From positions 32,001 through 96,000 of IMG/VR virus record IMGVR_UViG_3300030012_002034: a stretch of DNA of 64,000 nt. The stretch is one strand, 5' to 3'. The stretch is from a virus. The notes under the pieces were generated by a model, which saw only the letters and a program-made list of their open reading frames with translations, did not search any database and was not told the DNA's origin. The position numbers and the translations under genes were made by a program. Below, piece after piece: positions 31,733 through 45,731 of the stretch (its first letter is position 1; every line of letters starts with the position of its first letter).

Positions 31733-32010
31733 TATTTTTTCTTAAGCGTTCTTTTTTTTGGCTGAGATTTCGTTTGGGGCTCTTCTTCCATTTCTTCAGG
31801 TGGATTCATCATCATTGCAAACTGCATTTGAATCTGAGCTCTTTTAAATCTCACTTCATCTAGCTTCATAAGAGTCTCTTCATATTTGTGTTGAGCATCT
31901 AAATAAGGAATAGATTCAGTGTAAAAGTCTAGCATTTCTTTTTTCTTTTTTGCTAGTTCTTCTGGAGACATTTGCTCCATTTCTTGTTCTGTTGGTTCTG
32001 CTGTTATCAT
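31732..32010 (-). CDS. Hypothetical coiled-coil protein
   Basis: 92 aa, preceded by TATATTTG promoter box. Confidence 0.7.
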   Translation of the reverse strand: MITAEPTEQEMEQMSPEELAKKKKEMLDFYTESIPYLDAQHKYEETLMKLDEVRFKRAQIQMQFAMMMNPPEEMEEEPQTKSQPKKRTLKKK

Positions 32011-43638: not shown

Positions 43639-43706
43639 ATTTATTCACCGGATTAATTCTATAATGGTTCGCAATTAAATATTTATTAACCATTAAAATT
43701 TTTATT

Positions 43707-43916: not shown

Positions 43917-43979
43917 TAGTCATATGTCATTCACCGGATTAATAGTGTGTCAATAGATTGCACACTGTTATATTATTAT

Positions 43980-44060
43980 TGGAGTGAGGGAGGACAGTTA
44001 TACTTCGGTCACTGACTGGATACACAAACCCTGCAGGTCTTAGCCGTGTACCTCACTCTA
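43980..44060 (+). ncRNA. Candidate three-way-junction RNA
   Basis: TGGAGTGAGG/CCTCACTCTA stem, CAGTTA/TGACTG arm capped by C(UUCG)G, TACAC/GTGTA arm. Confidence 0.45.
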
Positions 44061-44087
44061 TTAATTTAACAAATTAAATTAACACTT

Positions 44088-44243
44088 ATGAAACAAATTA
44101 CGCATTACTTATTTGCTGTACTCTTATTGGGTACACTTACTTCAGTATTTTCTTCCGGAGATTCATTCTCGCTTGGAAAGTCCTTAGTTATTTATGGATT
44201 TTGGGCGCTTATGTTATCTCCTATGACAATTAAAAACGTTTAA
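44088..44243 (+). CDS. 51-aa membrane peptide
   Basis: MKQITHYLFAVLLLGTLTSVFSSGDSFSLGKSLVIYGFWALMLSPMTIKNV. Confidence 0.55.
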   Translation: MKQITHYLFAVLLLGTLTSVFSSGDSFSLGKSLVIYGFWALMLSPMTIKNV

Positions 44244-44248
44244 CTATT

Positions 44249-44371
44249 ATGAAAAAGATTATAATTACTCAAAAAGAAATCCAGGACGCTATGAAACATA
44301 GAGTTCAAAGGAACAAAAAAAAGTATTACCGGAAGGTAAAACACAAAGGTGCTTCTAAAGAGGCACAATGA
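44249..44371 (+). CDS. 40-aa basic ArfA-like peptide
   Basis: MKKIIITQKEIQDAMKHRVQRNKKKYYRKVKHKGASKEAQ; RVxxNKK...YxRKxKH resembles the ArfA core. Confidence 0.55.
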   Translation: MKKIIITQKEIQDAMKHRVQRNKKKYYRKVKHKGASKEAQ

Positions 44372-45219
44372 CATTTGGTGTTTATCTATAGCTTGCTATA
44401 GTATAAGCATCTCATGACCTTATGGTCATGCGGTTGCTCTCAAACCGTTAAGATAAACCAGTAATGGTATAAATCTGTAGTCGTCTTGGTAATAAGACTA
44501 CGGAGATATGTATAGCTTGCTATATGTATTTTATAGAAGAGTATTCCAATATCCATGTAACGGCAGCAATAAATCCCACGGGTTTGTGAGTTGCATGGAG
44601 AGTATGACAGGCATGCTCTTGAGCTTAAAAGGCAATAAGAATTGGGATAGATATTGGTACTATGGTGTTGTCGCACTTAGAGCTGGTATTAGAATTTGTA
44701 TTTAGAATGCTGTAAGAAATTACGTGTTCACATAAATATTTATTTAGTTAGTAGCCTTGACAAGCAAAAGCAGGTAGGAGTAGTAATCTAAACTTCCCAA
44801 AAGGAAGCATGATTACATAAACTCTAAGCGCCTTCTATCACTAACCTGAAACCTTTTTCAGCCATTAGATTGGCAAGTTTAATTTAAATATCAAGTAATA
44901 ACTTAAAAGCAAAATTAGTTTAGAGACTATTGTGATGCCACTAAAGGCAACAATGTTCTTATCCTTCTGCAATATGGAGGCATGGATAGCTCGCAAGGCT
45001 TGCCATGAAGGAATCCAGTAGTATCTGTAGTGAGGGGACACCCTCTTTAGCTCGTAAGGCATGCGGTATGAAAGTGAACTTATGTAAACAATAGTAGTGA
45101 TGGCGGACATCTTAATCCGTGAACATGTACAGTACAAATTAGAAATAGTTTGTGTGAGATAGTTGGAGAAATCCTAATTAATCTGTACGTAAAAGGTCAA
45201 GCTCTCAGCCTTTTTTTTT
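44372..45219 (+). ncRNA. Large (~850 nt) highly structured non-coding RNA (GOLLD/ROOL size class)
   Basis: More than 15 hairpins with GNRA and CUUG tetraloops, nested long-range helices, ends in T9; only short overlapping spurious ORFs. Confidence 0.7.
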
Positions 45220-45266: not shown

Positions 45267-45731
45267 ATGAAAAAAGAATTAGCAATTATTGTAGATGTTG
45301 ACGGGACGTTAGCAGATATGAGAGGTATTAGAGGACCTTTTGAGTGGGACAAAGTTCACCTTGATAGACCCCATCAAGATATTATTGATCTTGTTAAAGA
45401 TTTAGCAGATGCTGGTACAGATATAATGTCAGGTGATGCTTTAGCGGGAACGGAATACAAATATAAAATCATTATTACTACAGGTAGAGATGGTGTTTGT
45501 GAACAAGCAACTAAAAAATGGTTAGATGACCATAAAGTACCTTATTATGATTTCTTTATTAGAAAAGCAGGTGACTTTAGAAAAGATAACATCATTAAGT
45601 CTGAGATCTATATGGATCATATTAGACCTAAGTATGATGTTAAGTATGTTATTGATGACAGAAACCAGGTTGTTGAAATGTGGAGGTCATTAGGTTTACG
45701 GGTGTTACAAGTAGCACCAGGAAATTTTTAA
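45267..45731 (+). CDS. HAD-family polynucleotide 3'-phosphatase (T4 PseT phosphatase-domain-like)
   Basis: DVDGTLAD, TGR, RKD..IK, IDDRNQVVEMWRSLGL..LQVA motifs; start revised to MKKELA. Confidence 0.85.
   Translation: MKKELAIIVDVDGTLADMRGIRGPFEWDKVHLDRPHQDIIDLVKDLADAGTDIMSGDALAGTEYKYKIIITTGRDGVCEQATKKWLDDHKVPYYDFFIRKAGDFRKDNIIKSEIYMDHIRPKYDVKYVIDDRNQVVEMWRSLGLRVLQVAPGNF

Follow-up and report, generated by a model that had tools for sequence, protein, structure and literature searches.

The 64,000-nucleotide (nt) stretch of viral DNA analyzed here, positions 32,001 to 96,000 of IMG/VR record IMGVR_UViG_3300030012_002034 and hereafter called the window, contains a short open reading frame (ORF) that ends 13 nt before a large non-coding RNA begins. 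This ORF is almost certainly a real gene under purifying selection, and the second half of the 40-amino-acid (aa) peptide that it encodes, MKKIIITQKEIQDAMKHRVQRNKKKYYRKVKHKGASKEAQ, resembles Escherichia coli ArfA (YhdL; PF03889), a ribosome-rescue factor dependent on release factor 2 (RF2). From the sequence we put at about even the chances that the product is a phage-borne, shortened ArfA-like ribosome-rescue (or ribosome-docking) peptide. Support for the ArfA-like reading comes from the reality of the gene, from an order-specific match over residues 16-33 and from the company of translation and rescue genes. The peptide is very basic, with 11 Lys, 3 Arg and 2 His residues and a net charge of about +11; it is read from an ATG start to a TGA stop and contains the motif HRVQRNKKKYYRKVKHKG, as an earlier note on this DNA had claimed. 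The gene and the two segments on which the comparison with ArfA turns are located as follows.

44249..44371, + strand: gene for a small basic, putatively ArfA-like protein, 40 codons plus TGA (ORF, homologues, pN/pS, protein-cluster search).
44294..44308, + strand: codons 16-20 (KHRVQ), paired with ArfA R26-E30, the RF2-recruiting beta-strand (HMMER, hhalign).
44309..44347, + strand: codons 21-33 (RNKKKYYRKVKHK), basic tail with the KH motif, paired with ArfA K31-G46, the mRNA-entry-channel tail (profile alignments).

Relatives of the peptide are numerous. A word-indexed search of 5.8 billion proteins returned 19 homologues of 37-52 aa, a scan of IMG/VR gave 73 viral loci that carry the gene, and a full hidden Markov model (HMM) search of 1.84 billion representative proteins recovered 267 clusters at E <= 1e-3 and 74 at E <= 1e-10. 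The position of the ATG and the length are constant across more than 70 phage loci. The family consensus, MKxIxVTQxEIxxAMRPNVxRNKKKYxRKxKHK, is extended by a variable tail of 3-20 residues; within the conserved core of 33 residues N22, K24, K25, Y26, K29 and K31 are invariant, R21, K23, R28 and H32 nearly so, and T7, I11 and A14 show that the N-terminal half is strongly conserved too. Over 54 unique coding sequences the ratio of non-synonymous to synonymous polymorphism (pN/pS) is 0.27-0.31, and variability at third codon positions (0.45) exceeds that at first and second positions (0.22 and 0.16) about twofold. A very short ORF, lacking a Shine-Dalgarno sequence and abutting a non-coding RNA, might be taken for a chance frame or for the 5' part of that RNA, which is of the GOLLD type (see below). 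The comparative data already contradict this notion, which can hardly be true: the pN/pS of about 0.3 and the third-position excess speak against a chance frame, the constant start and length are found in loci that are mostly GOLLD-free, and the GOLLD RNAs of other phages start without a peptide ORF.

The family is essentially phage-borne within the reach of a scan of 185,579 species genomes, whose pattern detects close relatives only; its 13 matches all lie on contigs of metagenome-assembled genomes, seven of them binned to Bacteroidota. The phages concerned range from 30 to 350 kb, and the gene has many different neighbors in them. Searches of the GenBank phage collection with blastn and tblastn found no relative of the region or of the peptide, which the low-complexity filter probably masks. 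A long form of 156 aa (P0079, from a 55-member cluster on contigs of up to 180 kb) consists of the peptide core, with KH changed to KS, running into a hydrophobic, membrane-like C-terminal part; it recalls the unstable hydrophobic tail of full-length ArfA.

The likeness to ArfA was first suggested from a 21-residue core of the E. coli protein quoted in the earlier note. This core is found exactly in K-12 ArfA from NC_000913.3, together with a GKGS segment that is absent in the phage peptide. Alignment of peptide K16-K33 with ArfA R26-G46 gives 11 identities in 18 aligned positions. Nine of the ten invariant or near-invariant tail residues correspond to ArfA N32, K33, K34, K36, Y39, R41, K42, K44 and H45, and the tenth, R21, pairs with K31; at the sequence level KH thus falls on KH when RNKKKYYRKVKHK is laid on ArfA K31-G46. 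Ahead of the tail, H17-Q20 is aligned with ArfA Q27-E30; the central V/I is kept across the family, and there is no equivalent of F25. AlphaFold2 (AF2) leaves this segment extended in a model (mean predicted local distance difference test score, 73.5) in which residues 8-15 form a helix and both the N-terminus and the basic tail are extended. In ArfA, Q27-E30 is the strand that recruits RF2, and the basic tail binds 16S rRNA within the mRNA entry channel; a pocket of this channel is occupied by the KH motif, the sole feature common to ArfA and the independently evolved BrfA (PMC8012679).

Several comparisons indicate that the resemblance is real, order-specific and selective for ArfA. Among 177,635 distinct Protein Data Bank (PDB) sequences, ArfA was the only or the top natural match of the family profiles, with E-values of 0.25, 0.041 and 0.08 for profiles of 19 (A1), 53 (A2) and 114 (A4) sequences. 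Comparison of the family with an ArfA alignment by hhalign gave P 0.001 (probability 21%) and 0.00027 (41%), a test weakened by the limitation of that alignment (A3) to Enterobacteriaceae. Column-shuffled decoy profiles of the same composition (n=400) scored -0.8 +/- 1.9 bits against ArfA, with a maximum of 6.8, as compared with 16.8 for the real profile. In the reverse search, the ArfA HMM weakly matched 113 of 231 family members versus about 7 of about 8,800 other phage ORFs. A feature search of the ESM Atlas returned clusters of DUF7230 and a 46-aa cluster with PF03889 in 23% of its members (score 0.90). Where the resemblance failed was in the Pfam search: neither the peptide nor any of 52 relatives matched the ArfA profile at E <= 10 (cut-off, 25.5 bits), E. 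coli ArfA scoring 89.5 bits as positive control, and the peptide can therefore not be filed as a member of the ArfA family. No candidates emerged when the six reading frames of the phage were scanned with PF03889 and PF23876, the first-pass screen being too lossy to make this informative.

The Pfam family that comes closest is PF23876 (DUF7230), an uncharacterized family of about 42 aa. It is matched by 48 of 53 members at E <= 10 (best E 5.4e-6), over positions 12-36 of the 42-position profile; the window peptide itself reaches 11.5 bits (E 0.34; cut-off 27 bits). DUF7230 is also the only other Pfam match of E. coli ArfA, a weak one (E 0.11). Judging from these profiles, the phage family may be the same as DUF7230 or border on it. 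We found no paper that mentions DUF7230 or describes the peptide family.

The surroundings of the gene provide the third line of support. Clustering of the neighbors at the 73 loci revealed no universal neighbor; the recurrent ones are translation-related. In a clade of ten loci from phages of about 300 kb (L039, L041, L043, L045, L049, L050, L052, L053, L056 and L064), the peptide gene is preceded at about 270 nt by a full-length phage smpB (PF01668, E 5e-44; for example L045:2303-2734); no gene for transfer-messenger RNA (tmRNA) was found within 3 kb in these fragments. Of 50 contigs that bear the peptide gene, 8 have smpB; in one of these, a 353-kb phage, the two genes are 46 kb apart. Elsewhere, tRNA genes or clusters flank the peptide gene (L011, L019-21, L029, L037, L048 and L071). 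In some of these loci the tRNA starts a few bases from the peptide stop codon (3103-3175 in L019-L021, 3088-3160 in L048, 3374-3446 in L011); it is a tRNA-His(atg) or has an odd anticodon loop, and in L011 it sits between the peptide gene and GOLLD. The smpB clade further has a DHH-family protein and an SPFH/Band-7 protein among its neighbors. In a marine phage clade, the peptide ORF is overlapped at its 3' end, stop codon included, by a match to the Rfam DUF805b motif (RF02914; L032:1176-1208; 36 bits, just above the gathering score).

The most conspicuous neighbor in the window is the RNA that follows the gene.

44385..45219, + strand: divergent GOLLD-type large RNA of about 835 nt, with a terminator-like hairpin and T-run at its end (Rfam RF02032, iterated nhmmer profile).

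On sequence grounds, this RNA appears to be GOLLD-like and to represent a divergent, marine crAss-like-phage subtype. Its match to RF02032 (44773-45211; 64 bits, E 9e-16) covers all model positions 1-416, and with its length of about 835 nt, its phage setting and the association with tRNAs in its relatives it conforms to GOLLD; its score differs, lying well under the gathering score of 150. At gathering thresholds Rfam gave no match in the whole window, GOLLD appearing only under E-value thresholds. The RF02032 search of 50 contigs detected only 3 GOLLDs and missed that of the L002/L102 contig (G001), which is 96% identical to the window's; absences from this search are unreliable, and nhmmer, which found GOLLD relatives of about 835 nt in 47 loci (10 plus 37), was used instead.

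The earlier note had considered the peptide as a possible partner of the adjacent RNA and suggested looking for their co-occurrence. GOLLD proved to be a recurrent neighbor, but most peptide genes have none nearby: it lies within 3 kb in 10 of the 73 peptide-anchored loci, always on the same strand, and is absent over that distance in the other 63, in 20 of which Rfam showed no other large RNA. A conserved GOLLD 22-mer served as anchor for 38 further loci. At GOLLD-anchored loci with at least 2.5 kb on both flanks, the peptide gene was present in 9 of 14, in either order; it lies up to 1.5 kb downstream of GOLLD in 11 of 26 loci and up to 1.5 kb upstream in 3 of 30. The order seen in the window, peptide and then GOLLD, is the minority arrangement. 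The spacing varies from 23 to 2186 nt, and 7 of 14 GOLLD clusters at 80% identity include the gene. It is the commonest protein-coding neighbor of this GOLLD subtype; still, at least five full-flank GOLLD loci lack it, and where it is missing, tRNA clusters are often found at the GOLLD locus instead. Peptide and GOLLD are therefore frequent neighbors across diverged lineages and not obligate partners. Their adjacency most likely reflects a shared early "translation/RNA island", possibly a single transcript, and less likely a dedicated or obligate peptide-RNA complex.

In one subgroup of GOLLDs (L082, L083, L088, L090, L096, L099, L108, L109 and L115), a 5' hairpin some 26-45 nt before the first GOLLD helix combines an invariant loop, UGAGAAU, with stems that covary (CUAAGG/CCUUGG, AUAUGG/CCAUAU, ACUACUGG/CAGUAGU). 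The nhmmer profile of GOLLD, based on the window lineage, does not extend to this hairpin, which that lineage lacks.

One could envision the following course of events for an ArfA-like peptide. The basic tail RNKKKYYRKVKHK would dock in the mRNA channel on the 30S subunit, which is empty in stalled ribosomes, and K31-H32 would sit in the KH pocket. The extended HRVQ segment and the short helix (8-15) would form a platform for a class-I release factor; this would hydrolyze the peptidyl-tRNA, and the freed ribosomes would return to the pool for phage translation. That the peptide docks on the ribosomal mRNA channel we consider somewhat better than an even bet; that it also recruits a release factor, and so performs true rescue, is a more tentative proposal, somewhat less than an even bet.

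A number of points weigh against the ArfA-like reading. No family member reaches the Pfam ArfA model, each single E-value is sub-threshold and the match spans only about 20 residues, over which homology and convergence on a generic RNA-binding motif are inseparable at the sequence level. The GKGS segment (G35-K36-G37-S38), invariant in A3, is missing throughout the family, where a single K stands in its place. Peptide residues 1-15 do not align with ArfA 1-25, the region of the A18 helix and of F25; the peptide has one short helix only (8-15 in the AF2 model), as against the ArfA alpha-helix 15-24 with its A18 for RF2 activation. The source lineage lacks the non-stop wiring of arfA and brfA. 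ArfA is known from beta- and gamma-proteobacteria, whereas the likely hosts here are Bacteroidota, and recruitment of RF2 is species-specific. Finally, ArfA cut to 40 aa is inactive (PMC8012679), and the phage core measures 33 aa.

Some of these points fit a peptide that merely plugs the channel, docking by its tail while its N-terminal half recruits no release factor. Such an inhibitor would show the same tail similarity to ArfA, and both the lack of alignment of the first 15 residues with ArfA 1-25 and the brevity of the 33-aa core would be accounted for. A precedent that we count in its favor is the reported inhibition of trans-translation by a synthetic SmpB-tail peptide (PMC8012679). Such a plug would block tmRNA-SmpB or other A-site factors, or park vacant host ribosomes, in the course of host takeover. 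We regard a plug as unlikely. The match includes the RF2-recruiting strand of ArfA, with its central V conserved, and the strong conservation of T7, I11 and A14 in the N-terminal half argues for a specific second contact. Besides, co-occurrence and adjacency with a phage smpB sit poorly with a factor that blocks trans-translation. It could also be proposed that the peptide is a generic small basic protein that binds nucleic acids or has a regulatory role, being DNA-binding or packaged in the head, and that its likeness to ArfA is convergent. The match is indeed short, lysine-rich and sub-threshold, and the distribution over phages of very different size and gene order would suit such a protein. 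Yet decoys of the same composition never came near the real score, the recurrent neighbors are related to translation, and the gene is located in the early/replication arm, outside the virion module, which together make a generic role improbable.

The proximity of GOLLD raises another possibility, that the peptide binds GOLLD or phage tRNAs as a partner or chaperone, coating, folding or capping the giant RNA. The same-strand adjacency at peptide-anchored loci, the frequency of the gene at full-flank GOLLD loci and in GOLLD clusters, and the charge of about +11 are what one would expect of such a partner. Against it stand the 63 peptide loci that are GOLLD-free within 3 kb, including the 20 with no other large RNA, and the full-flank GOLLD loci without the peptide. 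The protein that the conserved motif matches, moreover, contacts rRNA in a defined pocket, and GOLLD is reportedly an RNA-only assembly, according to published cryo-EM work. On balance a role as RNA partner looks unlikely. It is tempting to speculate that one phage system for the takeover of translation comprises both GOLLD and the ArfA-like peptide: since the peptide gene is the commonest protein-coding neighbor of this GOLLD subtype, on the same strand, both would act on stalled or vacant ribosomes and their tRNAs. Distinctly unlikely as we hold this to be, it would, if true, offer the first functional handle on GOLLD.

The end of the ORF deserves separate comment, as the earlier note had likened a hairpin right after the KH codons to the 3' hairpin that controls arfA mRNA.

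44349..44366, + strand: 7-bp hairpin GUGCUUC-UAAA-GAGGCAC with one G-U pair and loop UAAA, within the last six codons (z -2.3).

The hairpin (GTGCTTC-TAAA-GAGGCAC in the DNA) is indeed present; the K31-H32-K33 codons occupy 44339-44347, and 2 nt separate the hairpin from the TGA stop. With an outer AAACAC/GUGUUU helix included, the fold reaches -12.7 kcal/mol (z -2.3), a stability equalled by 8 of 200 shuffles and thus only mildly unusual. The same sequence forms a hairpin in L002/L003, a hairpin of different sequence occupies the position in L005, and there is none in L004. A stable structure at the 3' end (z < -2) is seen in 8 of 55 unique relatives, the hairpin being missing in about 85% of the relatives, and none of the 55 shows an arfA-like arrangement in which a terminator is reached without a stop codon. 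A regulatory device of the arfA type is not borne out: the stem has 7 bp, there is no U-tract and the element is not conserved. For RNase III a stem of 7 bp is not long enough. The mRNAs of arfA and brfA are cut short by a hairpin within the reading frame, and the factor thereby comes under the control of tmRNA (PMC8012679). The hairpin of the window may mark a boundary, or serve in processing, between the ORF and GOLLD, or may have arisen by chance. Its identification with the GOLLD 5' hairpin of other phages was rejected as unproven, the relative position being the same and both loop and sequence being different.

Downstream of GOLLD, the gene product that the earlier note had described as a PseT-like phosphatase was recognized as a PNKP-type enzyme.

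45267..45731, + strand: stand-alone PNKP-type HAD 3'-phosphatase (PF25109 E 3e-46, phrog_505 E 1e-53).

A phosphatase of this type is also found downstream of the peptide gene in two loci without GOLLD (L005 and L018). No kinase domain was found on the protein, which has the phosphatase domain only; the RNA ligase families PF09414 and PF01139 were not found in the phage, and the search for PF09511 was uninformative, its control having matched nothing. With a phosphatase and neither kinase nor ligase found, a complete T4-type RNA repair module is not supported. The suggestion of a module that counters RNA-cleaving defenses retains the phosphatase and, with no kinase domain or RNA ligase found, is speculation.

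Upstream, the peptide gene is preceded by a second small ORF and by what may be its promoter.

44088..44243, + strand: small ORF for a hydrophobic protein of 51 aa, with its stop 5 nt before the peptide ATG.
43929..43943, + strand: second copy of the exact 15-mer ATTCACCGGATTAAT, a candidate early promoter element by inference.

The 51-aa ORF and the peptide ORF are likely coupled, and the same small ORF immediately precedes the peptide gene in L002, L003, L008, L009, L012, L013 and L068. The 15-mer ATTCACCGGATTAAT has two exact copies (43643-43657 and 43929-43943; chance expectation 0.19), each of which precedes a small-ORF unit. The second copy may drive a single early transcript comprising a leader, the 51-aa ORF, the peptide ORF and GOLLD. 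The 144-nt leader (43944-44087), between the 15-mer and the 51-aa ORF, is structured (-36.5 kcal/mol, z -2.5) and closed by a 10-bp helix, GGAGUGAGGG/CCUCACUCU(A).

The source phage record (107,381 bp, 30.9% G+C) is an estimated 91% complete; it contains one copy of the peptide gene and one GOLLD, and no tRNA or tmRNA genes were found in it. Terminase, portal and major head proteins are phage-typical. The terminase shares about 26% identity with its counterparts in crAss-like phages of Bacteroides, Flavobacterium and Cellulophaga, which makes the virus a distant crAss-like phage, probably of aquatic origin and with a likely host among the Bacteroidota. In this group genes usually have no Shine-Dalgarno sequence, and its absence ahead of the peptide ORF is consistent with such a host.

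Small release factor (RF)-dependent rescue factors such as ArfA, BrfA and ArfT are hard to find by sequence. Should the ArfA-like reading be true, many phages, probably of Bacteroidota, would bring their own answer to ribosomes stalled on cut messages, and at least 267 clusters of phage peptides of 35-45 aa would be minimal natural peptides targeting the mRNA entry channel. Even leaving GOLLD aside, this would be without known precedent among RF-dependent rescue factors, both in viruses and in the Bacteroidota world. The recurrence of GOLLD, tRNA clusters and phage smpB around the gene offers a lead, open to testing, on what GOLLD does.

Comparison with known systems brings out both likenesses and differences. 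With ArfA the peptide shares the colinearity of residues 16-33 with 26-46, including V29, N32-K34, Y39, R41-K42 and K44-H45, its small size and very basic nature, a variable, dispensable-looking C-terminal end and, in the predicted model, the same order of elements (helix, extended strand, basic tail). It differs from ArfA in having a core of 33 aa where ArfA needs about 46-55 aa, in being phage-borne, likely with Bacteroidota hosts, and in being encoded by a gene with an ordinary stop codon and without a conserved non-stop device. No BrfA chain was among the PDB matches of three profiles at E <= 10, the presence of BrfA (PDB 6SZS) in the searched set not having been checked. Like Bacillus subtilis BrfA, a small RF-dependent factor with a basic tail in the mRNA channel, the peptide has the KH motif; unlike brfA, its gene has no in-frame terminator (PMC8012679). 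The Francisella factor ArfT, compared by description, is an independent RF-dependent factor of only about 40 aa, and factors such as BrfA and ArfT are in general peptides of about 40-60 aa whose basic tail occupies the mRNA channel (PMC8012679). Burroughs and Aravind described a wider ArfT family without mention of phages (PMC6514570). A viral parallel is gp30 of pelagiphage HTVC027P, annotated as ArfA and expressed during infection (PMC12753301). Here too a phage encodes a small basic protein that has been interpreted as a rescue factor; gp30 is of another sequence type, with a KKGRGSFKR motif and no tail ending in KH, and did not surface as a relative of the family. Against the Pfam ArfA model gp30 (L077:15768-15944) gives E 4e-4 and 20.2 bits, below the threshold of 25.5, so that its published annotation rests on a sub-threshold match. 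Further small RF-dependent rescue factors are expected by reviewers of the field (PMC8012679), and the phage peptide, with its ArfA-like tail and its KH motif, may turn out to be one of them.
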